Positions 1 to 55,806 of a stretch of DNA of 64,000 nucleotides are shown in pieces. This DNA is from a virus. Taxonomy: Duplodnaviria; Heunggongvirae; Uroviricota; Caudoviricetes. Location: the IMG/VR virus record IMGVR_UViG_3300033144_006348; one strand, written 5' to 3'. The position numbers and the translations under genes were made by a program. Below the pieces are notes generated by a model. It was not told the DNA's origin, did not search any database, and saw only the letters and a program-made list of their open reading frames with translations. Within the stretch, counting starts at the first letter, position 1, and every line of letters begins with the position of its first letter.

Positions 1-749
1 ACTATACAATCTCCATTTATCCAGCTATATGTACATCCATCTGGAGGATTGGCTCCACCTAATAGATTCTGACCATTAGTTTGCCATGAATTAGTGTATA
101 TCCACAGTTTGTCACCCTCATAAACATATTTTGACACAGTATCAGTTGGGGGACCATTACTACAAATACCACATTGACTATCATTTACAGAGCCACTATA
201 AAACCACTCATATGTCCATTGACCGCCAGTATTTCTTATTACGATATTTATATCATTACCACACTCATCAACTACATGAACTGTGGCGGTTGGATCATAA
301 TTTACGCCGCATATTCCAGATTCAGAAGTCAGAATATTTTCTCCTGTGCTATCAGACCCATGAGCAAGACTATAACCGGTATCTCCAACAGACCAATAAT
401 AAGGAGGGCAACCACCTTGGACATACAATGTTATAGTTAATCCTGGAACTATAGTACTAGGAGTCCCAATGTCAGTTAAAACTAAACCTGTTGTGTCACA
501 GCAAAATTTAGTAGAACTTGATGAGCTTGAGCTTTGGAATGTATCAGTCCAAATACAAGAGATAGAAGATTCGCTAGAACTACTAGAAAAGGCAGAACTA
601 CTAGAGCTTGATGAGCTGCTTGAACTTGATCTACTTGAACTAGAGCTACTTGAACTTGAACTTGATCTGCTTGAACTTGAACTTGAACTAGAGCTTTCTG
701 AACTTGAACTAACTGAACTTGAACTGAAGAATAAGCTTGAATTACAAGT
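1..749 (-). CDS. Partial CDS running off the window start: poly-Ser linker then a Cys-containing C-terminal domain (..GGCPPYYWSVGDTGYS..CTYSWINGDC..). Likely the in-frame continuation of the tail-fibre gene 482..2752 after a -1 frame discontinuity near 726-750
   Basis: The minus-strand frame whose codon low coordinates are multiples of 3 contains no stop from 749 down to position 1. There is a stop at 750-752 and no ATG/GTG/TTG start downstream of it. The translation looks protein-like rather than random. Confidence 0.45.
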
Positions 750-2752
750 TTAGGTCTGCATCCTACATCAGGAGCTTCACTACTACAAAACTGAACTAAA
801 CCAAATGTTCGATTCCCACCTATCTTGGGATATCTTAAAATCCATCCGTATGGTTCATGATTTGCAAAAGCATATTGTACAGCTCTAGTGACATCCCAAT
901 CATACTCAGTGTTAGCTGCAGTTGGTATAATAGTGTCTTCAGCGTCATCTAAATGATTGGAACGACCAATAGCTCCTTGCGGTACCCAATAAATTCCTTC
1001 ATAAGGATTACTATTATAAATTCTAAACATCCAACTGACTTCGCCTTCTTGAACAGGGTCGCCAACTCCAGTTCCAGGCTCCCAATTGTCCAACATTCTA
1101 TGGACAGATATTTTAAATCCCGCTGGAACTACACTTGTAGTCTTTAGTATTAAAGTTGCTTCTGTTATGATCGGATTACTACTGTTAAGGAGGGTATATA
1201 AATCATTAAGACTAAACTTAAGTAGAGGTACAGATATTTCAGCTTGTTCTCTAACAACATCTAAGGTAGGATATGCTCCATAATTTGTATCTTGATCATT
1301 ACTATCAATAAAGGTGTCTTCAAGATCAAGGATATACCCAGAAGTTGAACTACTTGACTCACTTGAGCTAGAAGAACTCATACTTGATGAGCTAGAAGAG
1401 CTACTTGAACTTCTAGAACTACTTGATGAACTACTGCTTGAAGAACTTGACGAACTTGATTTACTAGATCCACTTGACGAACTAGAGGAACTTGAACTAG
1501 AGGAACTTGAACTGCTAGACAAACTGCTTGAACTACTACTACTTGAAGAAGATTTTGAGCTTGATGAGCTGCTTGATGAACTCATACTACTACTTGAACT
1601 ACTAGATGAATTTAGACATCGCCTAGCTGAAACATTATCAATATACCATGTAGAAGTTGTAGAATCTGGAGCTAAAAACTCAACTCGAGAACTAGGTCCA
1701 CCTTCTGGTTCTGACTCTTTGTATCTTCTGATGTAGTTCCACTGACCAAGACTAAGGCCGGTTATTTCAAACTCTAAAGTATTAGTTGAATCAATTCCGC
1801 TTCCATCGTACCATTTAACTGTGATACTATTATTATCTACTGGCCAAATCCAAAAACGTAGTATATAGAAAGCTCCTAACACTTGTGCAAAATCATCTGA
1901 TCTAATTCCATCACCAGTATTGTCAGTTCTTACCTTTCTCGAATATGGAAGGCCAGGAACATCTGTTGATCTTCTATTAATTAGTGGTGTGCCTACACTA
2001 TCCCAACAGCAAGTTGAGTCCATTGTTCCATTTGAAATTAATTCGCCACCAACAAAAAGGCACGGTGTAGATGAAGAACTAGATGAAGAACGACTACTAG
2101 ATGAAGATGAACTGGATAAGGAACTACTGCTCATTGACGAACTCGAACTACTTGATGAACTAGTTTCTCCAATATCGAGGTCTTTTGTGAATCCAACACT
2201 CGGATTTGTAATGGATGGGACACCAGTTGACATAACAGGATAGATATATTCATACGATTCAGTGATAGGCGTATCTAAAACAAGGAATTGTATAATAGAA
2301 GTTCTATCAGAATCTTCATATATTTCTAATGAACAAGTACTATCTGTTAAATCTCTATTAAGAGAACAGTAGTAATTTCCAGATGTCATATCAACTGCAG
2401 TAGAATTAGCTGCTGTTTCAAAGTCTCTTAGCGTTAAAGAAAATTCTCCATCAACCTGAGTTCTATATACTGCAAGACCATCTTGATTAACTACACAATC
2501 TGTAAGGGTTGTATTTGTCTCATCATCATTAACTAACCAGTGTACTTGTCTTGAAAAGTTAGCATCTAGTTCTAAACTAATTGTAAAAAGATGAGTAAAC
2601 GTTCCGAAGAAGTCTGGACCATAACTTTTTCTTGAATAGACGTTAGCAGCTCCATACAAATTATTTGCAGTGATCTTTGTAGGTGGGGCAACTACAAGAA
2701 AATTAGCAGTTGTGTCAATTGTCTCATATGTATTAAAATTTTGGAATGTCAT
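482..2752 (-). CDS. Tail fibre-like structural protein with two very long poly-Ser linkers. The C-terminal ~90 aa (VQVQLVQVQ...) look like an out-of-frame reading of a third Ser-coding repeat
   Basis: 756-aa ORF. Residue runs of about 30 and about 100 Ser. Globular segments between the linkers. Sits in the block with the other fibre genes. Confidence 0.6.
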   Translation of the reverse strand: MTFQNFNTYETIDTTANFLVVAPPTKITANNLYGAANVYSRKSYGPDFFGTFTHLFTISLELDANFSRQVHWLVNDDETNTTLTDCVVNQDGLAVYRTQVDGEFSLTLRDFETAANSTAVDMTSGNYYCSLNRDLTDSTCSLEIYEDSDRTSIIQFLVLDTPITESYEYIYPVMSTGVPSITNPSVGFTKDLDIGETSSSSSSSSSMSSSSLSSSSSSSSRSSSSSSSTPCLFVGGELISNGTMDSTCCWDSVGTPLINRRSTDVPGLPYSRKVRTDNTGDGIRSDDFAQVLGAFYILRFWIWPVDNNSITVKWYDGSGIDSTNTLEFEITGLSLGQWNYIRRYKESEPEGGPSSRVEFLAPDSTTSTWYIDNVSARRCLNSSSSSSSSMSSSSSSSSSKSSSSSSSSSSLSSSSSSSSSSSSSSSSGSSKSSSSSSSSSSSSSSSRSSSSSSSSSSMSSSSSSESSSSTSGYILDLEDTFIDSNDQDTNYGAYPTLDVVREQAEISVPLLKFSLNDLYTLLNSSNPIITEATLILKTTSVVPAGFKISVHRMLDNWEPGTGVGDPVQEGEVSWMFRIYNSNPYEGIYWVPQGAIGRSNHLDDAEDTIIPTAANTEYDWDVTRAVQYAFANHEPYGWILRYPKIGGNRTFGLVQFCSSEAPDVGCRPKLVIQAYSSVQVQLVQVQKALVQVQVQADQVQVQVALVQVDQVQAAHQALVVLPFLVVLANLLSLVFGLIHSKAQAHQVLLNFAVTQQV
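500..745. repeat. Tandem hexanucleotide repeat (GAACTTGAACTAGAGCT-type), the third poly-Ser-coding repeat of the fibre gene
   Basis: Period-6 repeats read directly. Encode Ser-Ser in the minus frame whose codon low coordinates are multiples of 3. Confidence 0.8.
1330..1625. repeat. Tandem hexanucleotide repeats encoding a ~100-residue poly-Ser linker
   Basis: Period-6 (AGTTCA/AGCTCA-like) repeats. SSSSSS... in the minus-strand ORF. Confidence 0.8.
2085..2175. repeat. Tandem hexanucleotide repeats encoding a ~30-residue poly-Ser linker
   Basis: Same repeat type as 1330-1625. Confidence 0.75.
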
Positions 2753-2880: not shown

Positions 2881-5800
2881 TTAGTAAATCAATAAATCTT
2901 TTACTTTAGCTTCTGTAATCCAGTCAGGAAAGATAAACTCCTGCCCCATTGTGGGATATAAATACCTATAACTTATACTAGTACCTGTGACGTTTAGAGT
3001 GTCAAGTAAAGCAAGCCTAGTCTCATCAGTATATATTTTTAGAGTTGTTGTTGTAATTGTTCTTTCAAGTGTCATATAGTATGATGTGGGATATGGTGGT
3101 GGTGCAAAAGTAAAATAAGTATCAACATTTATTACACCACCACCAGGTAAATCATAAAGGTATATAATTGTGCTACCTGCATCGAAATTTACTATTGCAT
3201 ATATTCCTTCATCCTTTGCAAAAAAGTCGAATTCTGTATTACTAGTACCATCGTTGCCTAGGGCAATAAACGGCATATTTCCCTGAATGCTATAATCAAT
3301 TATCTCGACAGTTATATCTATAAGCGTTGTTGTATCAAAATAATTAGATCCATAATCTCTTTGTATATAGCTGTCTGAAGTAGAAGGGATGTCATTTGCT
3401 GTTATAACTCTTGGAGATACAGAGAAATATCCTTCACTATCTGATTCTGTAAATTCTGTAAAATCTTCAAATGGTATTACTGATGTTGAACTGCTACTGC
3501 TGCTAGAAGAATTACTTGAAGAACTACTTGAGCTTCTAGATGAACTACTTAAACTACTTAAAGAAGATGAACTACTTGAGCTATTACTTGAACTTGAGCT
3601 ACTAGATGAACTACTTAAACTTGAAGAGCTACTTGAAGATAAGCTTGAACTACTTGAACTACTTCTAGAACTTGAGCTACTTGATGATCTTGAGCTTGAT
3701 GAACTAGAAGATGATCTTGAACTTGAACTTGAACTGCTTGATGAACTTCTACTTGAACTTGAGCTACTTGATTTTGATGAACTTGATGAACTACTCAATG
3801 AACTAGATGAACTACTTGAACTACTTCTAGAACTTAAACTACTTGATGAACTTGAGCTTTCAGATGAACTACTTGTTGATGATGAAGAACTGCTTGTACT
3901 TGTACTTGAGCTAGATGAACTAGAGACAGTTAGTAGTTTGTAGTATAGCATTAATGTAATATAATCTACATTGTTAGCTCCACCAGATGGAGACCCTTCA
4001 ACTCTGATTACATATCCTTCATCTTTAGTTACCGAATCAAACTCATTTTCGTCACCTGTAAAATAGTTATCAAAATCTAACTGTTTTAGAGTGACTATTG
4101 TATTGTTCGCCCAGATCTGACCAACAGAAGGATTATAAGATCTATCAAATAAACCAGTTCTGAGATGATCAGTAATCTGATCTGCACCCGACCCTGAATC
4201 AATACCTATATCTTCAAGTCGAATAAAAGATGCTTTTCTATTCCCATCATCTTGTACTTTCCACATTATTAACTGGAAGTCCCCGCTGTTGTTTTGAGCA
4301 AAGGCATCTAACCTGTAACCAATGATCTTGAAATCCCTATTTCCAAGGTCTGGATAGCCGATAACTCCATAATCATAATCTATGCCAGAAATTGTTCCAC
4401 TAGTAACATCAATATTTGTAACTTCCCACCACTTTTTAGTTGTCTGATAGTACTGACTAGCTGTTGTATCAATGTCAATTATTTCAGTATCACCAATGAC
4501 TGGTATTGCAGTAGATTCGCTTAGTGATGTACCTGTGATTATCATCTCACCACCAGTTGTTATTGAGTTAACTAAAATAAAAACATGTTGATTAGACACT
4601 GCCCAATCAGCTGCTACGTCTCCAGTTTCTCCTGAATCAACAGTCCTAAATTCTCCAGCAAGGGGAATTTGGTTGTCGGTGACACCAGCCATCGGAAGAG
4701 TATAAGTTACGACTCTTAGTCTATCTTTTAAATTATCATCAACATAAGTCTTTACAGCTGCCTGAGTTGGAATTGTAGTATTAGATGATCCCTCTCCATC
4801 CATACCGGAATTGGTTGAAATGTTATTAACTGAAGCTCCAATAGGTAGGGTTAGATTTCCTCCAACATTTACACCACCATCAACTTCCAAATCTCCAGCA
4901 GATTCACTTAAACTAACTGTACCTGAACCAAGATTAATAAGAGTTGAAATAGTTGCTGTACCATCAACAAATAAATCATTATTAATTGTAACGTCGCCTT
5001 CAAATCTATTTTGAGAAGTTGCGCCTGCCGAATAAAGATTGTAATCATTAGCAAAACCAGCTGCTGATTGGTCTTCAATATATAATCCATATAGATTAGT
5101 TTGTGTTCCAGTTGGATTAAAACCAGGAGCTTGAACTAAAACACCATATCCATCTGTAATATCAACTTCTCCTGAACCAAGATCAAGTAGTTGAAAGCTT
5201 CCAGCTATTGCTGTAGTAAGAGTAACTCCTGACATACCAAATGAACTACCAACAGCAAACTTACCACCTATTATTGTAGAAATTGTTGCGCTATTACCAG
5301 TGACTACGCCAGAACCTGATATACCAATTGCTTCTGTAACGGTACTACCTGTATTTATTGCAGCTGCAGCATTTATACCATTAACTAAAAGATGCTGTGC
5401 GCCTGCTGTATGGTTGGCTTGTAATAATAAACCAGTTGTAGTATTTGCAGCTCCACTAGCTTCAGAGTTTGCTACTAATACTACACCAGTCGCACCACCA
5501 GTGAAAGTAGAATCAAAAGTATCTCTAATATTTAAAATAACCCCATATGTTGGAAATCCTGGTACATCTATATCTGCATCTCCACCTATAGCGCTATGAC
5601 CTTCAATTTTAGCACCACCACTGACAAGTAAATCACCAGCAGATTCACTTAAACTAACTGTACCAGAACCAAGATTTATAAGATTTGTTATAGTTGCAGT
5701 TCCATCAACAACTAGATCTTGAGTTGTAATTTCAAAATTTCCAGCATCCCAGTTAGCTGTTAAAGGAGTAGTTCCATTTTTCTTTAAAAACGCCGTATCA

Positions 5801-7692
5801 GCATAATCATAGATTAACTTAGCTGTAGATAACTGATCATCAGTAGAAGCAGCACTAATTGAATCAGAATCAAGAACACTTAGAATCTCATTTACAGTGG
5901 CTTCATTGCCACCGGTCTGTAAGCCGAGACCGTCCGCAGTAAGATACATAACATTACTACCACCAGCCTCGAAGTATATTGTTTCATTTGTCTGATGTAC
6001 CTTGATTCCAAACGAGGCACCTGAATACATACCAGTAACGCCAGAGGTAGCATAGAATAGTGAATTATCTGCATTGGCGCCATAGATGTCGAAATCACCA
6101 TAACTAGCACCAGCCTCTGTATACCAAGATATAGAATTGGCATAACTATTGAAATCTTCACCAAGGAATAAGTAATCCCAAGGTACATTCAAACCGAGCA
6201 CTGGGTTACCATCAACTTCTACTAGAAAAGTATCATTAGCATAATCAAGATTAAAATTGGTATTAGTGGTTCCAAGTGAAATAACATTAGGAGTTATTGT
6301 TAGATGATTGGTACCAGTAATATCTACAGTGAATACATCATTTCCATAGTCTACTTCTATATTGGTTCCCACGCTTGAACCAAGCCCTATAACTGGACTT
6401 GCTGAATATAAACCATCATGAATAGATTGAGTTAAATGATAAAATTCGTCTGCTGTACTATCTCCACCTTGAAGTCCTAGAAGTTCATTATGTTCATCAA
6501 CTGTATCTATTTGAGCATCTACATAAGTCTTAACAGCCTTCTCTGTAGGGGCCGCATCATCTGAATTACCGGCGAGGGTTCCATCAATTGAGAACTCATT
6601 TATAGAAGCACCGGCTTTCAGAGAGACACCGTCCGTATCAATTCGCATCTCAGCAACATTGTCTGCCTCAAACTGTATCGCCGTAGAGGCTTGCCATATT
6701 TGTATATTGGTACCATTCGTAGGACCTAAAAAGGTTGTACCCGCAGAAAGCTGTAAGTACAAAGCATTTGGCTTTATGAAGCCTTTAATCTGGCCAGCTC
6801 CTTCCGCATCAGAATCTACCTCAATATAAGTATCCGCCGGAGTACCTAATTTAATTACCGTATTTTTAGTAGCAGAAATCTGAAGCTCTTCGTGAAGATT
6901 AAGATGATAGTATTCATCAGTATCTCCACCTTGAAGACCTTGTAGTTCATTATGTTCATCAACTGTATCTATTTGAGTATCAACATAAGATTTTATTGCT
7001 TGTTCAGTTACTAAGAGTGATGTACTATCGCCAGTTAAACTATTATTAGTTGAAACTCCAGTAATAGTTGGACCAGATGATAAAGTTATATCTGAAGTTA
7101 AAGTTCCTCCGCTAACTACTAAATCTCCAGCAGATTCACTAAGACTAACTGTACCAGAACCAAGATTTATAAGATTTGTTATAGTTGCAGTTCCATCAAC
7201 AACTAGGTCTTGAGTTGTAATTTCAAAGTTTCCAGCATCCCAATTACCTGTAAGTGGTAATGAACCATCTCTGAGTAAATAGTCATTATTTACTATAGAG
7301 TTATAATCGGCAAGCGTTAGATGGTAATATTGATTAGTACTATCTCCACCTTGAATATTTAGAAGCTCATTATGTTCGTCTACTCCAGCTATTTGATTAT
7401 CAACGTAAGTTTTTACAGCGTTTTCAGTTGGCAACGAAGTTGAAGAAGCACCCGCTAAAGTTGTATCATTAGAAAACTCATTAACAATAACTCCTGCTGT
7501 TACAGCTAATGTCGTAAACTCTCCTGTACCTGAAACTAAATCACCGATAGGACCAGGTTTTCCAAGTAAGTTTTGTTTTGAAATATTTTTAGTATTTGCG
7601 AAAGGCTGGTCAAAGTCAACAATGGCAAGTAAATCTGCTGGAGCAGCCTGTGCTAATGATACTAAATCTCTGATCTTTTCATCGTCGGCCAT
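2881..7692 (-). CDS. Giant tail fibre / structural protein (1603 aa) with internal repeated modules and a ~170-residue poly-Ser linker
   Basis: N-terminus MADDEKIRDLVSLAQAAPADLLAIVDFD.. looks fibre-like. The module GNFEITTQDLVVDGTATITNLINLGSGTVSLSESAGDL occurs 3 times, and KTYVDxQIxxVDEHNELxGLQGGD..YHL occurs 4 times. Long uninterrupted ORF. Confidence 0.7.
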   Translation of the reverse strand: MADDEKIRDLVSLAQAAPADLLAIVDFDQPFANTKNISKQNLLGKPGPIGDLVSGTGEFTTLAVTAGVIVNEFSNDTTLAGASSTSLPTENAVKTYVDNQIAGVDEHNELLNIQGGDSTNQYYHLTLADYNSIVNNDYLLRDGSLPLTGNWDAGNFEITTQDLVVDGTATITNLINLGSGTVSLSESAGDLVVSGGTLTSDITLSSGPTITGVSTNNSLTGDSTSLLVTEQAIKSYVDTQIDTVDEHNELQGLQGGDTDEYYHLNLHEELQISATKNTVIKLGTPADTYIEVDSDAEGAGQIKGFIKPNALYLQLSAGTTFLGPTNGTNIQIWQASTAIQFEADNVAEMRIDTDGVSLKAGASINEFSIDGTLAGNSDDAAPTEKAVKTYVDAQIDTVDEHNELLGLQGGDSTADEFYHLTQSIHDGLYSASPVIGLGSSVGTNIEVDYGNDVFTVDITGTNHLTITPNVISLGTTNTNFNLDYANDTFLVEVDGNPVLGLNVPWDYLFLGEDFNSYANSISWYTEAGASYGDFDIYGANADNSLFYATSGVTGMYSGASFGIKVHQTNETIYFEAGGSNVMYLTADGLGLQTGGNEATVNEILSVLDSDSISAASTDDQLSTAKLIYDYADTAFLKKNGTTPLTANWDAGNFEITTQDLVVDGTATITNLINLGSGTVSLSESAGDLLVSGGAKIEGHSAIGGDADIDVPGFPTYGVILNIRDTFDSTFTGGATGVVLVANSEASGAANTTTGLLLQANHTAGAQHLLVNGINAAAAINTGSTVTEAIGISGSGVVTGNSATISTIIGGKFAVGSSFGMSGVTLTTAIAGSFQLLDLGSGEVDITDGYGVLVQAPGFNPTGTQTNLYGLYIEDQSAAGFANDYNLYSAGATSQNRFEGDVTINNDLFVDGTATISTLINLGSGTVSLSESAGDLEVDGGVNVGGNLTLPIGASVNNISTNSGMDGEGSSNTTIPTQAAVKTYVDDNLKDRLRVVTYTLPMAGVTDNQIPLAGEFRTVDSGETGDVAADWAVSNQHVFILVNSITTGGEMIITGTSLSESTAIPVIGDTEIIDIDTTASQYYQTTKKWWEVTNIDVTSGTISGIDYDYGVIGYPDLGNRDFKIIGYRLDAFAQNNSGDFQLIMWKVQDDGNRKASFIRLEDIGIDSGSGADQITDHLRTGLFDRSYNPSVGQIWANNTIVTLKQLDFDNYFTGDENEFDSVTKDEGYVIRVEGSPSGGANNVDYITLMLYYKLLTVSSSSSSSTSTSSSSSSTSSSSESSSSSSSLSSRSSSSSSSSSLSSSSSSSKSSSSSSSRSSSSSSSSSSRSSSSSSSSRSSSSSSSRSSSSSSSLSSSSSSSLSSSSSSSSSSNSSSSSSSLSSLSSSSRSSSSSSSNSSSSSSSSTSVIPFEDFTEFTESDSEGYFSVSPRVITANDIPSTSDSYIQRDYGSNYFDTTTLIDITVEIIDYSIQGNMPFIALGNDGTSNTEFDFFAKDEGIYAIVNFDAGSTIIYLYDLPGGGVINVDTYFTFAPPPYPTSYYMTLERTITTTTLKIYTDETRLALLDTLNVTGTSISYRYLYPTMGQEFIFPDWITEAKVKDLLIY
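3485..3905. repeat. Tandem hexanucleotide repeats encoding a ~170-residue Ser-rich linker in the giant fibre gene
   Basis: Period-6 repeats with occasional R/L/K/N/T interruptions. Confidence 0.8.
5636..5762. repeat. Intragenic direct repeat copy A (~125 bp, ~95% identical to copy B at 7126-7257)
   Basis: AGATTCACT[T/A]A[A/G]ACTAACTGTACCAGAACCAAGATTTATAAGATTTGTTATAGTTGCAGTTCCATCAACAACTAG[A/G]TCTTGAGTTGTAATTTCAAA[A/G]TTTCCAGCATCCCA. A more diverged third copy lies at 4895-4980. Confidence 0.75.
7126..7257. repeat. Intragenic direct repeat copy B
   Basis: See copy A. Confidence 0.75.
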
Positions 7693-25866: not shown

Positions 25867-27393
25867 TTATTTTCTCAATTCTGAGCTTGAGGCTGAGCAA
25901 TCCACACCAGAACCTTCTGGTCCACATGGAATATTACCACAGTTATTAGTGATACTAAGAGTAGCAATACCTGCACTTCTAATCAATGCTGTCGCATATC
26001 TTGACAGGATTGTTAGACTTGGAGTGAATCCTAGTGGATATGGATGCAGAACAGCTGGTACATAAGGACTATATACATAAATAGCCTTTAGTTCCTCAAC
26101 TGGTTTGTATACCATTACCATTGTGCCTTGTGTTACAACTGCTGATGTTAGAACTTTCCATTTTCCACCAGCTACTGTAGCACTTCTATATCCCAGGTCT
26201 CCATCAACTGAAGATGTTCCTGTATAATTAAACGTCTGTAAATCTTCAAGGATAGCAACATCTAGTGGGTTCGCTAGAATTGTATTTCCAGCTTCAATGT
26301 TAGTATCAGTGTAAATTTGTCCAGATAGTCTGTTCAGGACAGGGATAATGTTTTCATGCCAGTATTTGGTTCCCCAAGTATACGTTACAGGGGGGGTACA
26401 AGAGAATGTGTCTGTATGACAGATATTATTCAGTCTTGTATTTGCGGTAATAAGAGCATTGATAATTTCTCTATCAATATCTAGCGCCACTTGCTGTCCT
26501 AGAATATTTACTATTTCAGCTTGCATTGAGATATCAAACAGAGCTCTCATGTCTTGCTCCATGTTGATTGTCCAGTTTGCAGAGATCTGGCGGTCTCTAG
26601 CATATAGACGAATCTTTTCAACTGATAGTTCAACTCTTGGGTTGATTTGGTTTTCTTCTAGTGAAGTAGTTACTGTGAAACGAGCGTACAGTACAGTTCC
26701 TACTGTGCTGGAAATGACAACTGTTCCATTTAGATAATCTACTTGACCAGAAACAACATCTGCAACTCCACCGATGCTTACACTTGATGAAAAGTGACCT
26801 TCAACAGCAGGTACGATACAAACATCTGTAAAATGAGTTCCGTCAGCCGAAACAGCGTCAATTTCAAAGTCTCTCTCGAGATGTGCTTGAGCGGGTACTA
26901 GTCCTGCTGTAGCAAGTACGTCATAACCGCTGCTTGGTACAGGCATTATAGCTGCAACCTGTGTTCCAAATGCGACACCCTGTGAAATGTCAGGTGTAAT
27001 AACAGGAGCATTATATTGCAAATCGCTATTTGATGGACTAAATTTTGCTTTAACAAACGCTTTAACTGTTTCTGGTTTATCCATTGGTGAAACAGTAATA
27101 GCTTCTTTGGCAACTAGTTTCGGATAGAACACACGAAGAATAGGCAGAGTCAGTGTTTCATACGGGTTGATCTGAAACATTGAATTTTCAAGCAGATTCA
27201 CTCTAGTATTTTCTGCTAGTTGAATAAAATCTTTTCTGTCTTTCTTATTCTCAATAGATTCGGCCAGGCCAGTTACATATGTTTCAAAGGCAGCATCATC
27301 AACAAGAATAGCTTTTAAATTACCGGGCTTTGATGGGTCTATTCCACTGATTTTTTTAGTGGTTCTATAGACTTCGGTCAGTAATTCTTTCAT
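25867..27393 (-). CDS. Putative major capsid protein (508 aa)
   Basis: Large protein at the end of the head-gene block. Strong RBS GGAGGAAAATAATTATG on the minus strand. The bidirectional terminator lies downstream. Assignment is by size and position, with no motif evidence. Confidence 0.45.
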   Translation of the reverse strand: MKELLTEVYRTTKKISGIDPSKPGNLKAILVDDAAFETYVTGLAESIENKKDRKDFIQLAENTRVNLLENSMFQINPYETLTLPILRVFYPKLVAKEAITVSPMDKPETVKAFVKAKFSPSNSDLQYNAPVITPDISQGVAFGTQVAAIMPVPSSGYDVLATAGLVPAQAHLERDFEIDAVSADGTHFTDVCIVPAVEGHFSSSVSIGGVADVVSGQVDYLNGTVVISSTVGTVLYARFTVTTSLEENQINPRVELSVEKIRLYARDRQISANWTINMEQDMRALFDISMQAEIVNILGQQVALDIDREIINALITANTRLNNICHTDTFSCTPPVTYTWGTKYWHENIIPVLNRLSGQIYTDTNIEAGNTILANPLDVAILEDLQTFNYTGTSSVDGDLGYRSATVAGGKWKVLTSAVVTQGTMVMVYKPVEELKAIYVYSPYVPAVLHPYPLGFTPSLTILSRYATALIRSAGIATLSITNNCGNIPCGPEGSGVDCSASSSELRK

Positions 27394-28282: not shown

Positions 28283-28642
28283 TTAATATTTCTGTTTTTT
28301 TAGTTGGACTATCCTATTTTTTAGGTTGCTAAGATCTGTAGAGATATTTTGAATTTTACCCTTCAATTTTTCTTTACATGTTGGTTTTGCACATTTTCCA
28401 GACAACGATTTTATTTTAGAAAGTTCTGCCTGCTTAGCTATTGCTTTGGACTGTAGCATACAAATAGCTTTTTCTTTTTCAGGAAGATTTTTACAACGTC
28501 TGGCAGCTCGGGTGAAAAAATTTTGATATGTTTGATATGATAAATTTAGAAGACTGCCAGCACCTATTGCTACCCCTATCGCTAGAGGTTCAATTTCTTG
28601 TTGAACTTGTATTTCATTTAAATAATCTTCTAATATATTCAT
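28283..28642 (-). CDS. Lys/Cys-rich small protein (119 aa), paralogous in its C-terminal part to 28644..29192
   Basis: Shares a ..C..K.KAIC..KA.AK..C.KP.CK.KLKGK.. pattern with its neighbour. Confidence 0.35.
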   Translation of the reverse strand: MNILEDYLNEIQVQQEIEPLAIGVAIGAGSLLNLSYQTYQNFFTRAARRCKNLPEKEKAICMLQSKAIAKQAELSKIKSLSGKCAKPTCKEKLKGKIQNISTDLSNLKNRIVQLKKQKY

Positions 28643-28643: not shown

Positions 28644-29192
28644 TTATGATTGCCCCAATTTAGCTTTTTCTTTTGCTATTCTTACCTGTAATTTACCTTT
28701 ACATTTAGCTGGATTTTTTGTTTTGCTACACGCTGCTAATCCTTTTTGCATAACCATTATTTTCGCTTTTTGAGCATCTATTTTAAATTTATTCATACAA
28801 GCTTTCTTTTCTGGACCTTTTCTGTTAGCACATGATTTAGATGCTGCTGAAAATTTCTTTCTATAAGCTATCATGCCGGCCGCTGCAGCAATGGCTGCAA
28901 TACCCAATATAGCCCATGGTTTAAAGCTATCTGGAATTAGTCCTTTACTTAAAAATAGTTCAACTTTTTGTGCGAAAGAATATCCACTTTCACCCATAAA
29001 TTCAAGAAGTTGATCTACTTCTTCTGTAGTAACATTTCTTTTAGCTTCTCCAGAAATCAATAAATGTATCACTTCGTTATCATTAGCTTCTGTAATAAAG
29101 TTTCCCAACCCTAATTTATTTTCTTTTGTTAAATTTTCGTGCTCCAAAACATAATACAAGGCTAGTACCTTTAAGTTTGTATTTCCGGTCAT
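28644..29192 (-). CDS. Membrane-anchored Lys/Cys-rich protein (182 aa)
   Basis: Central TM helix (WAILGIAAIAAAAGMIAY), then a basic Cys-containing tail. Confidence 0.35.
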   Translation of the reverse strand: MTGNTNLKVLALYYVLEHENLTKENKLGLGNFITEANDNEVIHLLISGEAKRNVTTEEVDQLLEFMGESGYSFAQKVELFLSKGLIPDSFKPWAILGIAAIAAAAGMIAYRKKFSAASKSCANRKGPEKKACMNKFKIDAQKAKIMVMQKGLAACSKTKNPAKCKGKLQVRIAKEKAKLGQS

Positions 29193-50303: not shown

Positions 50304-50381
50304 CGGGGTGTAGCTCAGTCTGAGTAGAGCGCTCGGTTTGGGGCCGAGGTGTCGGAGGTTCGAATCCTCTTACCCCGACCA
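50304..50381 (+). tRNA. tRNA-Pro (anticodon TGG)
   Basis: Hand-folded cloverleaf. Acceptor CGGGGTG/TACCCCG, anticodon loop TTTGGGG, T-loop TTCGAAT, A discriminator, encoded CCA. Confidence 0.8.
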
Positions 50382-50422
50382 TTTTAGAAGTAAACTAAAA
50401 CAGTGAAAGGGAGAATTAGTGA

Positions 50423-50698
50423 ATGAATCTTAGGAAAAAAAGTTATAAAAGTATTGTTGCACCATTGGTCAAAATGGCAGGGGATCTAAAAGATTACGCC
50501 GACAGTCAAAAAACTGTAATCTTAGATTTGGTAGAGAAGAAAACCAAGATTGAGAGCGACATGGAATCATCACAGCTTGAAATAACAAGATCACAATACA
50601 CCTCAGAAAAGATTTCAGAATTGTTAGCTTCTGATGGGGTTGACGACTATGAAGAAGATCCAGAACAAGATGAAACAAAACCAGAAATAACAGAATAG
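50423..50698 (+). CDS. Small acidic hypothetical protein (91 aa)
   Basis: Lies between two tRNAs. RBS GAAAGGGAG. Confidence 0.4.
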   Translation: MNLRKKSYKSIVAPLVKMAGDLKDYADSQKTVILDLVEKKTKIESDMESSQLEITRSQYTSEKISELLASDGVDDYEEDPEQDETKPEITE

Positions 50699-50706
50699 AG
50701 ATGAGT

Positions 50707-50791
50707 GCCAGTGTGGCGTAACTGGTAGGCGCGCATGATTTAGGATCATGTGTCTTAGGGCGTGGAGGTTCAACTCCTCTCACTGGCACCA
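50707..50791 (+). tRNA. tRNA-Leu (anticodon TAG), type II with long variable arm
   Basis: Acceptor GCCAGTG/CACTGGC, anticodon stem CATGA/TCATG, loop TTTAGGA, encoded CCA. Confidence 0.8.
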
Positions 50792-50822
50792 TTTTTAATT
50801 CACGAATTGCGAAAGGAGTATT

Positions 50823-51059
50823 ATGAAACAAGATGAAATTGATAGAGTAGAAAAAGTAAAACAGGAACACGCACAAAATTTAAAAGAAAAGATGAAATCA
50901 ACTGGAGATAAATTTCAGGATTTCGTAAACTGTTTAGAATATATGAAACACGAGTTTTGTTATGATGAAATAAAGGTAATAATATCAAGCTCCTCTAGTA
51001 ATCCAACGCTTGAATGGTCCATAGAAACCTCTAGAGAAAATATAGAGACTAAAAAATGA
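50823..51059 (+). CDS. Hypothetical protein (78 aa)
   Basis: RBS GCGAAAGGAG 7 nt before the ATG, directly after tRNA-Leu. Confidence 0.4.
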   Translation: MKQDEIDRVEKVKQEHAQNLKEKMKSTGDKFQDFVNCLEYMKHEFCYDEIKVIISSSSSNPTLEWSIETSRENIETKK

Positions 51060-51454
51060 GTCAAGAATTTGTACAATTTACTTTTCCATGTTCTGATTGT
51101 ATAGTCAGAGCAGCATGTAAAGACCAAGAAAGATTAACAGTTAAGGATCTATATAACACTAAATCTGCCAAATGTCTTACAATACCAAAACTCGAAGATG
51201 ATAAATCATATCATAAAGTCTTAATGGAATGTATGGCAAATTTATTCAAAGATATAATGGGCAGTGTACAAAAAGATGAAGATCCAATAGGAGTGAATAA
51301 AGAAAACAAACTTCCTTACAGATATGTTACATTATTTTATCAGATGGCATGTGCTATGCAATACATGGTAAATTCAACAAGCTGGAAAATAGGTGAATTG
51401 AAAGATTTTGATAGGGATGAAATAAATAGAAAGTTGAAGCTTGCTAAACTGTGA
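51056..51454 (+). CDS. Cys-motif protein related to the P-C-x2-C-I-V family (FPCSDCIVRAACKD)
   Basis: Core motif present; 132 aa. Confidence 0.4.
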   Translation: MSQEFVQFTFPCSDCIVRAACKDQERLTVKDLYNTKSAKCLTIPKLEDDKSYHKVLMECMANLFKDIMGSVQKDEDPIGVNKENKLPYRYVTLFYQMACAMQYMVNSTSWKIGELKDFDRDEINRKLKLAKL

Positions 51455-51798
51455 AAAAAAATATTCATGAACTTCTAAAAATATGTAATGAAAATAGTGG
51501 AAAAATCCTAAGATCAAAAGAGATTTTAAAACTATTTGGATATTCTACAAACACTAATGTTAATGAAACAACAGCTGGCTATTTTTTAACAATGGCGGGT
51601 AATTCTCCTGGTTCTGGTACGCCACAAATGTGGAAAATAGGTAGTTGGGTAATTGTTACAAGAGATGAACTAAATAGTTTAGTAAATCCGAAAGACATAT
51701 GGGAAGGTAGATGGACAACAATAAAATATAATCAATATTTATTTCCTAGAGACCGTATTCCATGGTGGAGACTAAAGGAATATGGTGGAAAATTATGA
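51451..51798 (+). CDS. Hypothetical protein, tandem paralog 1
   Basis: LLKICNENSGKILRSKEILKLFGYS..WKIGSWVIV..WWRLKEYGGKL. Confidence 0.4.
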   Translation: MKKNIHELLKICNENSGKILRSKEILKLFGYSTNTNVNETTAGYFLTMAGNSPGSGTPQMWKIGSWVIVTRDELNSLVNPKDIWEGRWTTIKYNQYLFPRDRIPWWRLKEYGGKL

Positions 51799-52130
51799 AA
51801 GACATATATGATCTGCTTAGAATATGTAATGAAAATAGTGGTAAGGTTTTAAAAACTCCAGAGATTTTAGAACTATTTGGATACTCTATAAAAAGTAGCA
51901 TATTTCAGACAAAAGTTATAGAATTTTTGTTTTTTCAAGGATATATACATCCATCAAACTATTGGAAAATTGGAAGTTGGGTGCTTCTCTCTTATAAAGA
52001 ATTAAGAGAATATGAACCAGAAGAAAGACAAGCATATTTTGAGGCAAGTAAAATATCTAAAAATCTATATCTATATGATAAAAATAAAGTTGAATGGTGG
52101 AATCTAAAGGAATATGGAGGTAATCTATGA
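51762..52130 (+). CDS. Hypothetical protein, tandem paralog 2
   Basis: LLRICNENSGKVLKTPEILELFGYS..WKIGSWVLL..WWNLKEYGGNL. Confidence 0.4.
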   Translation: MVETKGIWWKIMKDIYDLLRICNENSGKVLKTPEILELFGYSIKSSIFQTKVIEFLFFQGYIHPSNYWKIGSWVLLSYKELREYEPEERQAYFEASKISKNLYLYDKNKVEWWNLKEYGGNL

Positions 52131-52302
52131 CTATAGAGGCATTTCAAATATTATCTAATTTTTATTCTACAATAGTTCTAATAGGAATGGCGGTATGGTG
52201 GAGTCGTAAGAGTAAAATAGATAGACTTGTAAAGGGTATTCTCTTAATCGGTGGTATGATGGAAATTTTTACTATTATTTTAAATTTGTAGAAAGGAAAT
52301 GT

Positions 52303-52680
52303 ATGTTAAGACAAGATGGAGAATATATTATCTTTATTATACAACATAAATATAAAGATAAAAAAGTTGAAGGCTGGAGTAATTCAGGAGATTGTGGTCA
52401 GTTTTTTCCTAACGGGCCATTTACAGAAAAGGAATGGAGAACCAAACATAAAGAAATAGATTATTTTAATGCATCGGGGGATTGCTGGCAAGATACTGGA
52501 GTACATGGAACATATGATCTAAACGAGGCATTTCAGCTTTTAGTGAAGGTAATTCAATGGGCTCCAGAACACAGATTCCGTATTGCAAGAATAGAAATAA
52601 AACAAAAAACAGAACAGGTTGCAGAAGCCAAAGGGAACGAAAGTAAATCAAAAGAAGAAGTAGAAGCAGTATTAACATAG
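52303..52680 (+). CDS. Hypothetical protein (125 aa)
   Basis: RBS GAAAGGAAATG. Its stop abuts tRNA-Thr. Confidence 0.4.
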   Translation: MLRQDGEYIIFIIQHKYKDKKVEGWSNSGDCGQFFPNGPFTEKEWRTKHKEIDYFNASGDCWQDTGVHGTYDLNEAFQLLVKVIQWAPEHRFRIARIEIKQKTEQVAEAKGNESKSKEEVEAVLT

Positions 52681-52681
52681 T

Positions 52682-52758
52682 GCCGATGTAGCTCAGCAGG
52701 CCAGAGCTGGGGTTTTGTAAACCTCATGTCGCAGGTTCGATTCCTGTCATCGGCCCCA
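52682..52758 (+). tRNA. tRNA-Thr (anticodon TGT)
   Basis: Acceptor GCCGATG/CATCGGC, D-stem GCTC/GAGC, anticodon loop TTTGTAA, encoded CCA. Confidence 0.8.
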
Positions 52759-52776
52759 TTTATGAAAGGAGAATCA

Positions 52777-53301
52777 ATGCAAAAACACACCGATATTACA
52801 GTTGGGTTATTTGGCACATGTGACAACATTCCTTGGCGTATACCCTTTATCGAACGGTATGAAAAAGAAGGAATAAAGTGGTTTAATCCCGATTATGGTT
52901 CTGGATGGCATCCAGGATGCATACCTGAAGAGAATTATTTTTTAAACAACGCTGAAATCATCTTATTTCCTATCCTAAAAGACTCCCTAGGGTCTGGTAG
53001 TCTTGCAGAGATAGGGTTCAGTATACAGAACGTAGTACGAAATATTCAAAATGGTAAACAACAGTTCCTTATAGTACTCATAGATGATGACTGTACTGAT
53101 GAACGCAAAACGGATGAAGAAAGAAAAAGGTCTATCAAGGATAGAAAGTTAGTCAAAACTAAGTTAATGGAAAAACTGTCATATCCATCCATAACCATAG
53201 TTAATTCGCTTGAAGAGATGCTTGATCTTAGTGTCGATCTTTACATACTTGCGAAGAAAGGGGAGACAGTAGAAGATAACAGCGAAAGTACGGCTTCTTA
53301 A
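52777..53301 (+). CDS. Hypothetical protein (174 aa)
   Basis: ATG 52777 lies 18 nt after the tRNA CCA, with RBS GAAAGGAG. Confidence 0.4.
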   Translation: MQKHTDITVGLFGTCDNIPWRIPFIERYEKEGIKWFNPDYGSGWHPGCIPEENYFLNNAEIILFPILKDSLGSGSLAEIGFSIQNVVRNIQNGKQQFLIVLIDDDCTDERKTDEERKRSIKDRKLVKTKLMEKLSYPSITIVNSLEEMLDLSVDLYILAKKGETVEDNSESTAS

Positions 53302-53307
53302 TTTAAT

Positions 53308-53399
53308 GCCCCTGTAGCTCAATGGATAAAATTCTTAACAGAAAACAGAGCACCTGAACTGTCAGGTAGACGTTGGTTCGAATCCTGCCGGGGGCACCA
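53308..53399 (+). tRNA. Atypical tRNA-like gene (92 nt): perfect acceptor stem and T-arm, ~20-nt insertion in the D-loop region, non-canonical 6-nt anticodon-region loop AACTGT; identity undetermined, possible pseudo-tRNA
   Basis: Acceptor GCCCCTG/CGGGGGC, A discriminator, encoded CCA, T-loop TTCGAAT. D-region reads GCTCAATGGA[taaaattcttaacagaaaac]AGAGC. Confidence 0.4.
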
Positions 53400-53420
53400 T
53401 TTAAAAGAAAGGAGTGAAAA

Positions 53421-53639
53421 ATGGGATATGATCTCAATACAGTTGGAGATATTAGAAGAAGATTAAAACAATATCCATCAGACTTAAAAGTATTAACTCT
53501 TCACGATGGACTTGGTTATCCAATTAATGAAATTAGAGTTACTTATGTTAAACCAGATAAAAATTGGTCAGGTGACGACTGTTTCATAGGGGCTGAAGAA
53601 GATGATCCTGATGCTATTCAAGTTCTGGAGATTGACTAA
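53421..53639 (+). CDS. Small hypothetical protein (72 aa)
   Basis: RBS AAAGGAGTGAAAAATG 22 nt after the tRNA-like gene. Confidence 0.4.
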   Translation: MGYDLNTVGDIRRRLKQYPSDLKVLTLHDGLGYPINEIRVTYVKPDKNWSGDDCFIGAEEDDPDAIQVLEID

Positions 53640-53872
53640 TGAAATATCATATTGCTTATCAAGATGGTGATGATGCAATACTTTCCAGTTTTAATTCCAT
53701 GGAAGATTTAAAAAGGTTTATGACATCATGTAATCTACAACCAGATGATGTATGGTTAATTGAAGGAGGTGAACTAATTTCTGGGATTGGAAATAAACAC
53801 ATGCCAAAGGAATTTTTTGATGATAAAAGAAAACGGAAAAATAGTAAAATGCCCCGAATGCGGAAGCGATGA
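53639..53872 (+). CDS. Small hypothetical protein (77 aa)
   Basis: ATGA overlap with the upstream gene. The C-terminal basic tail overlaps the next ORF, so its true end is uncertain. Confidence 0.3.
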   Translation: MKYHIAYQDGDDAILSSFNSMEDLKRFMTSCNLQPDDVWLIEGGELISGIGNKHMPKEFFDDKRKRKNSKMPRMRKR

Positions 53873-53984
53873 TATTGAAGCGCCTATGCCATTTGATTAT
53901 ATAAAGCGATGTAATAATGATGAGTGCCCATTTTATTTAGAGAATAATATGAGAAATGAATTTATGACCGGTGAACATAATTAA
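53820..53984 (+). CDS. Small zinc-ribbon protein (CPECG..CNNDECP)
   Basis: Internal ATG of track ORF 53787..53984. Its stop abuts tRNA-Arg. Confidence 0.3.
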   Translation: MIKENGKIVKCPECGSDDIEAPMPFDYIKRCNNDECPFYLENNMRNEFMTGEHN

Positions 53985-54064
53985 GCCTCTGTAGCTCAGT
54001 CCGGAAGTAGAGCAGCTGGTTTCTACCCAGCATGTCGGGGGTTCAAATCCCTCCAGGGGCTCCA
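53985..54064 (+). tRNA. tRNA-Arg (anticodon TCT)
   Basis: Acceptor GCCTCTG/CAGGGGC, anticodon stem GCTGG/CCAGC, loop TTTCTAC, encoded CCA. Confidence 0.8.
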
Positions 54065-54080
54065 TTTTGAAAGGATCTTT

Positions 54081-54266
54081 ATGAAGATATTCAACATATT
54101 TTGGGTAGAATCTCCATGCAAAAAATGTATCATTCGACCATGCTGTCATAGAAGAGATGATTGTGACACAAGATTTGAATTTGAAGAAGGAATATTTTTT
54201 AGGATATTAAGTGCTGGGTTTGCAGGAATTATATTTGGAATTATAAGAAACATAACTGGAATTTAA
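54081..54266 (+). CDS. Tail-anchored Cys-rich zinc-ribbon mini-protein (SPCKKCIIRPCCH + C-terminal TM)
   Basis: Family motif. TTTGAAAGGA RBS directly after the tRNA. Confidence 0.45.
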   Translation: MKIFNIFWVESPCKKCIIRPCCHRRDDCDTRFEFEEGIFFRILSAGFAGIIFGIIRNITGI

Positions 54267-54284
54267 AAGAGAAAGGAGTGAAAA

Positions 54285-54458
54285 ATGTCAATTAATGTAG
54301 AGGATATTGTTGTTGATTTTGAATGTCCAGAATGTAAGTTAACACAACAATCTTCAGTTGGTGATATAATCGAAGTAGGATGCCCTGTATGTACCGTATG
54401 TCAACACAATCCTATAATGTGTCATGGAGATGCATGGATTTATGAAAACAGAACGTGA
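54285..54458 (+). CDS. Small double CxxC zinc-ribbon protein (57 aa, below the ORF-track cutoff)
   Basis: Hand-translated MSINVEDIVVDFECPECKLT..GCPVCTVCQHNPIMCHG. RBS GAAAGGAGTGAAAAATG. Confidence 0.35.
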   Translation: MSINVEDIVVDFECPECKLTQQSSVGDIIEVGCPVCTVCQHNPIMCHGDAWIYENRT

Positions 54459-54480
54459 ATTAATTGGAAAGGAGTGAATA

Positions 54481-54912
54481 ATGGAAACATTTACATCAGG
54501 TGCATCAGTATTTGAAGAAATGCTTGGAGACATTGATTATCCAGAAGATAGTTTTGCGGGAAAATTATATAAATTTAAATGTAGGGTAGGTTGTGTTAAA
54601 AGACGACCTCCTCGTCATGACTATTTTGAATATATTCTTGAGATGGGAGTTGGAGATATTGATAAAGTATTTAAAGGTGAGTCTTTTGATGGGAAAACAC
54701 ATTTAACATTTGTATTTCCTGAGAGATATATGGCAGTTACTGAGCAACAGGCATTTACAAGTATTTTAAACAACCATCCAGAGGCAGATTCTTTAGAACA
54801 AGTCGATATTATAACATCTTGCCCTATGCTAATTGGTTCTTTTCACAACGTACAAATTAGAATTCTAACATGGGAAGACGATCATCTATATGATTGTGGT
54901 AATACTGGTTAA
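54481..54912 (+). CDS. Hypothetical protein (143 aa)
   Basis: RBS GGAAAGGAGTGAATAATG. Confidence 0.4.
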   Translation: METFTSGASVFEEMLGDIDYPEDSFAGKLYKFKCRVGCVKRRPPRHDYFEYILEMGVGDIDKVFKGESFDGKTHLTFVFPERYMAVTEQQAFTSILNNHPEADSLEQVDIITSCPMLIGSFHNVQIRILTWEDDHLYDCGNTG

Positions 54913-54931
54913 AATTTGAAGTGAATTTATA

Positions 54932-55171
54932 ATGCGATACTTAATATTGAATATTAATGAAAATTTTACTCTGCTATGTCATAAAGACCCGTGTAAAAAA
55001 TGTATCGTCCAACCAGCATGTAGTATGTTATGTAAAGAAAAAATTCAACTGGATATTATGTTATATCCATACAATTCTTGGTTTGTAAGATTTCTGGCAG
55101 GAGTGGTTTTATTTGTTCCCTTAAGTATGGTAGTTTATACCTTTGTAATGATATATAAAGGGCTAACATGA
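54932..55171 (+). CDS. Tail-anchored Cys-rich zinc-ribbon mini-protein (DPCKKCIVQPACSMLC + TM)
   Basis: Family motif with a hydrophobic C-terminus. Confidence 0.45.
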   Translation: MRYLILNINENFTLLCHKDPCKKCIVQPACSMLCKEKIQLDIMLYPYNSWFVRFLAGVVLFVPLSMVVYTFVMIYKGLT

Positions 55172-55190
55172 AAATATTAAGAGGTTTAAT

Positions 55191-55430
55191 ATGGGAATAA
55201 TAAAGTGGTGGATTGACGAAATCCAAAAAGCAATAATTATTTTATTTTATAAAAACCCATGTAAAAAATGTATTGTCAGAGCAGGCTGCTCAGTTGGATG
55301 TGACCAAAAAATATATTTGACCGATCCTATTACCTTGTTAAAAATAGAAGCTACCCTGAAGTTGATAGTATTTTTCGAGATACTCTCATTACTCTATGTT
55401 TTTATATATAGAGGGATCCTTGGAGCGTAA
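55191..55430 (+). CDS. Tail-anchored Cys-rich zinc-ribbon mini-protein (NPCKKCIVRAGCSVGC + TM)
   Basis: Family motif with a hydrophobic C-terminus. Confidence 0.45.
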   Translation: MGIIKWWIDEIQKAIIILFYKNPCKKCIVRAGCSVGCDQKIYLTDPITLLKIEATLKLIVFFEILSLLYVFIYRGILGA

Positions 55431-55432
55431 AT

Positions 55433-55714: not shown

Positions 55715-55790
55715 GGGTGTTGCCTAGTCTGGCTAAGGCACGAGACCTTGGATCTCGCATTCGTTGGTTCGAATCCAACCACCCCTTCCA
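55713..55790 (+). tRNA. tRNA-Gln (anticodon TTG)
   Basis: Acceptor AGGGGTG/CACCCCT, anticodon stem CGAGA/TCTCG, loop CCTTGGA, encoded CCA. Confidence 0.75.
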
Positions 55791-55806
55791 TATGAAAGGA
55801 GAACAT

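Follow-up and report, generated by a model that had tools for sequence, protein, structure and literature searches.

The 64,000-nucleotide stretch of viral DNA analysed here (the window) opens on a fibre-like gene, read on the minus strand, whose coding sequence lies in two frames. The listed ORF (482..2752) encodes a product of 756 aa ending in a Val/Gln-rich tail, and an overlapping -1 frame runs on to the window edge. Is the frame change programmed, is it a lesion, or is it an error in the sequence record? An earlier sequence-only reading had noticed the discontinuity and offered three options: an assembly indel in a repeat, a fibre pseudogene, or programmed -1 frameshifting. Codon tables of both frames bore out everything it said about the sequence at the break. 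The features of the locus are as follows.

725..2752, minus strand: frame-0 part of the gene, 676 codons, with its ATG at 2752
2752-2162, minus strand: N-terminal domain (coding score and linker codon counts)
About 2161-2093, minus strand: Ser linker 1 (linker codon counts)
About 2092-1610, minus strand: second globular domain (coding score)
1609-1337, minus strand: Ser linker 2 (linker codon counts)
1336-731, minus strand: CBM96 carbohydrate-binding module (Pfam PF24517, E 3.6e-8)
750..752, minus strand: TAA closing the -1 frame upstream (codon tables)
730-725, minus strand: first two Ser codons of linker 3, in frame 0
722..730, minus strand: frame junction, TCT TCA / GT TCA (codon tables, both frames)
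564..725, minus strand: Ser linker 3 in the -1 frame, 54 codons, SSSSVSSSSESSSSSSSSSRSSSSSSSSSSSRSSSSSSSSSSSSAFSSSSSESS
3..563, minus strand: C-terminal module in the -1 frame, 187 codons, continuing past the window edge
482..724, minus strand: spurious frame-0 tail of ORF 482..2752, 80 codons, VQVQLVQVQK...AVTQQV and TAG

In frame 0 the gene reads ...CRPKLVIQAY(733-731), S(730-728), S(727-725, codon TCA). Past 725 the same frame continues as V(724-722) Q V Q L V Q V Q K A L V Q... and meets TAG 484-482 after 80 codons; this is the Ser hexamer repeat in the wrong frame, as had been recognised, at a length previously put at ~90 residues. The -1 frame from AGT 725-723 on reads SSSSVSSSSESSSSSSSSSR..., and from 563 it continues as ISCIWTDTFQ..GGCPPYYWSVGDTGYS..CGVNYDP..IRNTGGQW..CGICSNGPP..CTYSWINGDCI. 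As already described, no stop interrupts it between 749 and the window edge; 249 open codons (749 to 3) follow TAA 752-750. The TAA confines the frame change to 752-725. Within that interval the break coincides exactly with a domain/linker boundary: the CBM96 module ends ...PKLVIQAY, and the other domain boundaries of the gene likewise pass directly into poly-Ser. The AGTTCA hexamers from 725 down to 581 are all in the -1 register. Adding one A between 725 and 724 (TCA/AGT, giving TCT TCA AGT TCA) yields a single gene of at least 917 aa; deletion of TC at 727-726 is an alternative way of joining the frames. The missing base falls in an AA dinucleotide, with no long homopolymer.

The sequence downstream of the break is true coding sequence. 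Base composition gives a stop probability of 0.072 per codon, so that 187 open codons would arise by chance with P about 8e-7; for 249 codons without a stop, P is about 7e-9. Over 563-1 the codon-usage log-odds were +0.34 per codon in the -1 frame; the other two frames scored -0.27 with 15 stops and -1.10 with 26 stops. The three upstream domains gave the same pattern, shifted by one frame. Ser codon usage in linker 3 (AGT 17, TCA 16, AGC 8 and TCT 8 over 749-564) is that of the in-frame linkers in the fibre-like gene and the neighbouring gene. The out-of-frame VQ tail had no homologues. Its openness is nothing special, since the Ser repeat (AGTTCA)n is itself stop-free in the +1 register; the corresponding frame has only 8 stops in 260 codons across the other three Ser linkers.

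A separate gene with an internal start, suggested by the long open frame, its good coding statistics and the bacterial homologues of the C-terminal module that stand alone as secreted proteins of 195-290 aa, is scarcely credible. The first 107 codons of the -1 frame are without ATG, GTG or TTG up to TTG 428-426 (codon 107), which lies inside an Ig-like beta-strand, in the middle of that domain and past the conserved N-terminal part of the module. Moreover, the frame opens with the 54-codon Ser linker, which makes sense only as a tether to a preceding module. The claim that this frame cannot be an independent gene thus stands.

The C-terminal module belongs to a sizeable family, with 405 homologues at E<=1e-3 and 100 at E<=1e-10 (best match E 3.9e-25, 49% identity). 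Its signature is 'GGCPPYxW ... CGVxYD ... IRNTGGxW ... YxWxC', which the window module matches. All family invariants (W57, G63, G83, C85, D99, C101, G114, W116, C177 and C186) are kept, indicating that the module is undecayed. Among the homologues the module always lies at the protein C-terminus, and some carry phage tail PHROGs at the N-terminus, which fits a fusion to the frame-0 part. About residues 30-115 of the window module form an Ig-like beta-sandwich (GGCPPYYW...CGVNYDP...IRNTGGQW). In the Cys-rich tail that follows, the Y.W..C motif with which the family ends (YSWINGDC) comes at the window edge, and the module's own end lies beyond it. An AF2 model had a core pLDDT above 90, and Foldseek returned generic Ig-like folds (SbsB, decoration proteins of phages N4 and Moo19, SraP and Fabs). 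Sub-threshold SprB and PKD Pfam matches were found among the homologues. Pfam, NCBIfam and PHROG hold no model of the family, and no solved structure was detectable by sequence. The module is thus an Ig-like sandwich with an SprB/PKD-like GGCPPYxW motif and a Cys-rich tail, of an unnamed family. Its earlier description as a lectin-like receptor-binding domain is only loosely right, as no lectin family was matched in sequence family searches or by Foldseek.

In 25 homologues from elsewhere an in-frame TGA stands at the position of the invariant Cys85, with a SECIS-like hairpin 12 nt downstream. Many members of the terminal-module family, two on IMG/VR viral contigs among them, seem to place selenocysteine at this position. 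The selenoprotein form was not found in the window, where the codon is TGC (311-309) and the RNA downstream of it has no special fold (z +0.15).

The module preceding the break (window:725-1336:-) matched Pfam CBM96 (PF24517) in two stretches at 33.9 bits (cut-off 26, E 3.6e-8) when scanned alone; the whole-protein scan did not return the match. The NCBIfam DNRLRE model, which we had taken to be similar to this module, gave no match and is set aside in favour of CBM96. The N-terminal domain matches the C-terminal domain of the 1603-aa protein encoded upstream (26% identity, E 4e-8). The gene shares CBM96 and Ig-like GGCPPYxW modules with modular phage fibre and adhesin proteins (CBM96, SprB/PKD-like Ig repeats). 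It differs from them in stringing its modules on long poly-Ser linkers of AGT/TCA hexamers and in ending with a module of a family that has no database model. The gene probably encodes a distal fibre protein or adhesin in a distant T4-like phage.

We then consider recoding. In well-known programmed cases a slippery heptamer lies in the overlap of the frames, usually conserved among relatives, and it is often accompanied by a hairpin downstream or an SD-like stimulator upstream. The check proposed earlier, for a slippery heptamer with downstream structure, came out negative on both counts. No X_XXY_YYZ heptamer or X_XXZ occurs in 752-725 (AAA CTT GTA ATT CAA GCT TAT TCT TCA), and the only heptamers in the whole ORF are at 2741 and 509. 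The RNA from 770 to 600 folds with an MFE of -21 kcal/mol, whereas its shuffles average -25.7 (z +1.6); these 171 nt are less stable than 193 of 200 shuffles. Transcriptional slippage is excluded, as 752-725 contains no A/T run of 4 or more and the shift point lacks the stretch of some 7 or more A or T residues that it would use; the sole homopolymer of at least 4 bases in 800-700 is TTTT at 790. By eye, the only SD-like element is AGGA about 35 nt upstream (about 765-762), at the wrong spacing, and no Rfam element or unusual tRNA was found. The would-be take-off codon TCA 727-725 is followed by GTT, neither a stop nor a rare codon. Bypassing of the T4 gene 60 type finds no counterpart either: the frames abut without an untranslated gap, and no stop follows the take-off codon. 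The phage structural genes lambda G/GT (tail assembly chaperone) and T7 gene 10A/10B, and also dnaX, resemble the fibre gene in that a -1 frame extends the gene with a C-terminal part that has no start of its own. In contrast to the fibre gene, which has neither, they possess a slippery heptamer and often a stimulator.

Recoding would thus have to be of a non-canonical kind, a -1 (or +2) frameshift or a hop from TCA 727-725 to TCA 722-720, making mainly a short product, with the full-length fibre that carries the tip module as the minor one. The intact downstream frame without its own start is what such an event would leave. Ser is encoded in both frames across the junction, with identical TCA codons 5 nt apart, and genes for tRNA-Ser(UGA) and tRNA-Ser(GCU) are carried by the phage itself. 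Nevertheless, we consider it improbable: apart from the missing signals, the frame-0 product would bear 80 residues of out-of-frame repeat, and the openness of that VQ frame is already explained by the repeat. Equally, it is very unlikely that the base is truly absent and that a low-frequency -1 shift, or a 5-nt TCA-to-TCA hop, operates at the Ser repeat without a canonical site. A -1 shift would give the junction peptide ...LVIQAYSSSSSSVSSSSE..., and at low frequency it would produce mostly tip-less protein and a little full-length fibre with the Ig-like/Cys-rich module.

With no sign of programmed frameshifting, the two frames are best read as one long gene. Of the three options raised at the outset, the programmed shift is therefore unsupported, an old pseudogene is unlikely and an indel is favoured. 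We consider it moderately likely that this is one gene of at least 917 aa whose break is unprogrammed and stems from a consensus or assembly error in the imperfect hexamer repeat. The gene would begin with ATG 2752, minus strand, and end just past position 1, encoding in order the N-domain, the second globular domain, CBM96 and the C-terminal Ig-like module with its Cys-rich tail, with Ser linkers between them. The base would have been lost at the first hexamer of linker 3, TCA-AGT being written TCAGT (727-723), and the in silico translation would then enter the wrong register, yielding a meaningless VQ-rich tail and orphaning the last module. If the error lies in the consensus or assembly, virions would carry the full-length protein. 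An ordinary single-base indel that divides a gene between two overlapping ORFs has the same appearance: frames that abut without a gap, one base that restores a continuous protein, parts that match known families, and no recoding signals or homologues of the tail. The only oddity here is the 80 codons over which the wrong frame meets no stop.

What remains to be weighed is whether the base is missing from the record or from the phage. That the dominant assembled genotype really lacks it, through a recent mutation or as a population variant, is possible, though we hold this only tentatively. The protein would then be 756 aa long, with a junk VQ tail and no C-terminal Ig-like/Cys-rich module, a young pseudogene-like truncation. 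The features of the sequence would be the same as under an artefact. Distal fibre modules of phages are often gained, lost or inactivated, which fits a mutation. The rest of the window also speaks for a mutation, as it is otherwise free of detectable frameshifts. None was seen in the 24.4 kb comparable with 30 related phage contigs, and the only other long start-less open frames in the 64 kb run antisense within longer genes. The assembly is therefore not prone to errors in general, which counts against an artefact. In the same comparison, an apparent second frame switch at 28.6 kb proved to be two adjacent small paralogous genes. On the other side, the 241 codons downstream of the break are undecayed, without stops and with all invariant family residues. 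This makes an old pseudogene unlikely, and a mutation could only be very recent. Selection would usually act against a dominant genotype that had lost the distal module of a long multi-domain fibre. Furthermore, slippage in a hexamer repeat changes length by multiples of 3 or 6 bases, not by 1. Consensus errors, in turn, concentrate in repeat-rich, low-complexity sequence, and it is in such a part of the gene that the break lies, which favours an artefact. On balance, the missing base is more likely an artefact than a real mutation.

Relatives offered no second copy of the gene for comparison. Megablast and tblastn against phage records found no close orthologue, and a word-indexed protein search with the fused query gave no matches. 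Scans of IMG/VR with peptides and DNA from three modules and both neighbouring genes returned nothing usable; a JGI metagenome scan for the fibre-like gene and exact-product look-ups for three window proteins returned nothing. IMG/VR does contain related phages (for example IMGVR_UViG_3300040801_004532 and 3300021511_000003), with major capsid proteins 63-85% identical and contigs up to 312 kb, and their stored flanks are without the fibre-like gene or its C-terminal module. Ser-rich frames in the relatives' loci, which are not on the strand of the capsid gene, were taken as antisense of acidic or Leu-rich genes.

For annotation, the 756-aa VQ-tailed product should not be carried forward; the gene should be described as a single protein of at least 917 aa, or be given a frameshift flag, and its C-terminal module should be recognised. 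Should the break be genuine, the terminal module would be missing from the phage, and binding carried by that module could be changed or abolished, a matter of local interest only. The side observation on selenocysteine in the family of this module may outweigh the finding on the frame break. For the phage itself, CBM96 and the Ig-like/Cys-rich end are the parts of the protein likeliest to touch the host surface, which bears on host-range inference.

The fibre-like gene that begins with an ATG at 2752 is the last gene at the left edge of the window, on the minus strand, and is listed as ORF 482..2752. Translation of all three minus-strand frames of 1-800, with codons tabulated by coordinate, bore out the frame discontinuity described in the sequence-only reading. 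The frame of the ORF (frame 0) reads ...C R P K L V I Q A Y(733-731) S(730-728) S(727-725) and, after 725, V Q V Q L V Q V Q K A L V Q... for 80 codons, ending at TAG 484-482. The -1 frame contains a TAA at 752-750 and is then stop-free to position 3 (249 codons). From AGT 725-723 it encodes a 54-codon Ser linker, followed from 563 by a C-terminal module of 187 residues, ISCIWTDTFQ...GGCPPYYWSVGDTGYS...CGVNYDPTATVHVVDECGNDINIVIRNTGGQW...CTYSWINGDCI. The AGTTCA hexamers from 725 to 581 are all in the -1 register, in which the linker Ser codons (AGT 17, TCA 16, AGC 8, TCT 8) are used as in the in-frame linkers of this gene and its neighbour. The frame change is confined between the -1-frame stop at 752-750 and position 724, where frame 0 ceases to make sense; 730-720 encodes Ser in both frames. 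Adding one base between 725 and 724 (TCA AGT for TCAGT) yields ...IQAYSSSSSSVSSSSESSS..., a perfectly periodic repeat; the frame is alternatively repaired by deleting TC at 727-726. The repaired gene encodes 676 + 241 = 917 residues inside the window.

Several lines of evidence bear on the coding status of the -1 frame. At a stop probability of 0.072 per codon (from base composition), 187 open codons have a P of ~8e-7 and 249 a P of ~7e-9. With codon-usage log-odds trained on 33 other window ORFs, the -1 frame of 563-1 scored +0.34 per codon, the other frames scoring -0.27 (15 stops) and -1.10 (26 stops); the same triplet of scores, displaced by one frame, recurs in the three upstream domains. 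When the 187 residues were searched with HMMER against 1.84 billion representative proteins, 405 proteins matched at E<=1e-3, of which 100 reached E<=1e-10 (best 3.9e-25, 49% identity). Alignment with 27 homologues showed that W57, G63, G83, C85, D99, C101, G114, W116, C177 and C186 are all kept in the window copy. Open length, codon score, homologues and invariant columns together show that the downstream -1 frame is really coding. It lacks a start codon for 107 codons, the first being TTG 428-426, inside the Ig-like domain; the downstream part is therefore no separate gene, in agreement with the sequence-only reading. That the VQ frame stays open for 80 codons does not indicate selection: across 260 codons of the other three Ser linkers, the same register contains only 8 stops.

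The window is phage DNA of ~34% G+C, with PHROG matches to a portal, a DnaB-like helicase, a family-B DNA polymerase and a major head protein:

25867-27393, major head protein (PHROG match)

Identity to cultured T4-like phages is only 24% for the head protein and ~27% for the polymerase. Thirty related contigs occur in IMG/VR, ranging in size from 27 kb fragments up to 312 kb; their head proteins are 63-85% identical. Together these values assign the window to a distant T4-like lineage that is uncultured and has a large genome. Directly upstream of the broken gene lies a fibre-like protein of 1603 aa (2881-7692, minus strand), which also has a long poly-Ser stretch. Its N-terminal third carries ~3 copies of the motif (A)VKTYVD.QI..VDEHNEL.G(L/I)QGGD....YHL; the motif alone gives short matches in unrelated IMG/VR contigs. 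Long plus-strand 'ELLELLDEL' ORFs opposite each Ser linker (469-753, 1314-1736 and 3389-3943) are antisense AGTTCA repeats, not genes. A cluster at 50304-63301 contains 11-13 phage tRNA genes, in which the sole unusual point is two tRNA-Ser genes:

59632-59719, plus strand, tRNA-Ser(GCT)
61606-61695, plus strand, tRNA-Ser(TGA)

These decode AGY and UCA, the two codons that build the poly-Ser linkers of the fibre genes.

Programmed -1 frameshifting had been put forward as one origin of the break, and the search for a slippery heptamer with downstream structure turned up neither. Neither an X_XXY_YYZ heptamer nor an X_XXZ tetramer occurs in the interval AAA CTT GTA ATT CAA GCT TAT TCT TCA; heptamers in the whole ORF occur only at 2741 and 509, and the only nearby homopolymer of 4 or more bases is TTTT at 790. 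Of 200 shuffles of the 770-600 RNA (171 nt), 193 folded more stably than the native sequence (z +1.6). An Rfam scan of the window returned only tRNA families, and no minus-strand terminator was found after 482. The sole trait shared with lambda G/GT and T7 10A/10B, known phage cases of -1 frameshifting, is an extension in the -1 frame, whereas both of their defining features that could be tested, slippery site and stimulator, are missing. With all recoding tests negative, programmed recoding is very improbable; the gene behaves like an ordinary indel-split gene.

The downstream part shows no decay whatsoever, so the frame break must be very recent if it exists at all. Loss of one base in an imperfect hexamer repeat is typical of consensus or assembly error, and repeat slippage does not yield such a loss. 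We favour an artefact, which we give roughly an even chance, over a genuine recent mutation; the latter is a less probable though serious candidate. No orthologue of the broken gene was found in phage records, IMG/VR, JGI metagenomes or protein collections. Elsewhere, tblastn with every ORF of at least 100 residues in the 30 related contigs covered 24.4 kb of the window and revealed no frameshift in that comparable part. The sole apparent one, at 28.6 kb, proved to be two adjacent small Lys/Ala/Cys-rich genes:

28283-28642, minus strand, small Lys/Ala/Cys-rich gene
28644-29192, minus strand, small Lys/Ala/Cys-rich gene

In two more distantly related contigs (L016 and L021) one stop-free frame matches both genes, a possible case of gene fusion or fission in this group of relatives. 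A search for long start-less open frames with good coding scores returned 3-749 only, antisense frames inside longer genes aside.

Outside the window, an in-frame TGA occupies the exact position of the invariant Cys85 (motif SASGT-C-GVxYD) in many members of the C-terminal module's family. In a word-indexed search, 13 of 16 returned proteins stop precisely at this residue. In the bacterial and metagenomic contigs encoding the truncated proteins, including the Deltaproteobacteria MAG GCA_019307285.1, the stop is always TGA, and readthrough recovers the remaining module to its Y.W.C(P) terminus. The gene is likewise interrupted by TGA in the IMG/VR viral contigs L043 and L044, and a pattern scan of JGI metagenome DNA added 20 members confirmed by the family HMM, for at least 25 distinct TGA loci:

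L043:5178-5180, TGA codon
L044:5175-5177, TGA codon
L048:3349-3351, TGA codon
L050:2589-2591, TGA codon
L053:830-832, TGA codon
20 further loci among L060-L092, TGA codons

The 25 TGA regions align without gaps. Most have a 5-7 bp hairpin beginning 12-13 nt past the TGA, with a loop that is usually AGUU or GGUC, placing G and U at +22 and +23. The stems vary by compensatory changes (pair 18-27: UA 10, CG 6, GC 6). Paired cells make up 78% over the 25 sequences, and the covariation score is 0.294 versus 0.133 in shuffles (0/500 reach 0.294), figures to be read with three stem bases fixed by the search pattern and the region coding. The module family has the look of a Sec/Cys family that uses a bacterial-type SECIS, and phage-borne selenoproteins may be among its members. 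Phage, viral or secreted selenoproteins go unmentioned in a 2026 review on the selenoproteomes of prokaryotes. The window equivalent of the TGA is TGC 311-309, with no such hairpin. The same pattern scan also returned a well conserved, unrelated sequence, ...NSNFFHGELN..FVHGG-TGA-GYAYGALSGAEDRDFCEL..., in six JGI/GenBank metagenome contigs (L062, L065, L070, L076, L084 and L093), which does not belong to the C-terminal module family.

Among the first 60 tabulated homologues, most carry the module at the protein's C-terminus, with 14-101 residues following the matched stretch and usually a closing Y-x-W-x-C(P); four long multi-repeat proteins and one truncated match depart from this pattern. 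Since the window copy reaches YSWINGDC in its last bases, the gene probably ends just beyond the window. Two homologous proteins (P0022 and P0028) have N-terminal phage tail PHROG matches, which places the module, as judged by homology, at the distal end of phage tail proteins. AlphaFold2 with the alignment modelled residues ~30-115 confidently as an Ig-like sandwich (pLDDT above 90); the Cys-rich rest came out poorly defined. The suggestion of a lectin-like domain found no support: Foldseek against the PDB returned generic Ig-like folds only, and Pfam, NCBIfam and PHROG models and solved structures gave no sequence match. A CBM96 module, above the Pfam threshold when scanned alone, precedes the third linker:

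1336-725, minus strand, CBM96 module (residues 473-676)

The N-terminal domain (2162-2752, minus strand) is paralogous to the C-terminal domain (2884-3486, minus strand) of the upstream 1603-aa protein (26% identity, E 4e-8), which suggests module shuffling, or interaction, between the two adjacent genes. The protein consists of globular modules strung on poly-Ser tethers, and the break coincides exactly with the junction between the CBM96 module and the third tether; the other domain-to-linker boundaries in both fibre-like genes also pass straight into poly-Ser. The gene adds a new member to the wide class of modular fibre or adhesin proteins in phages.
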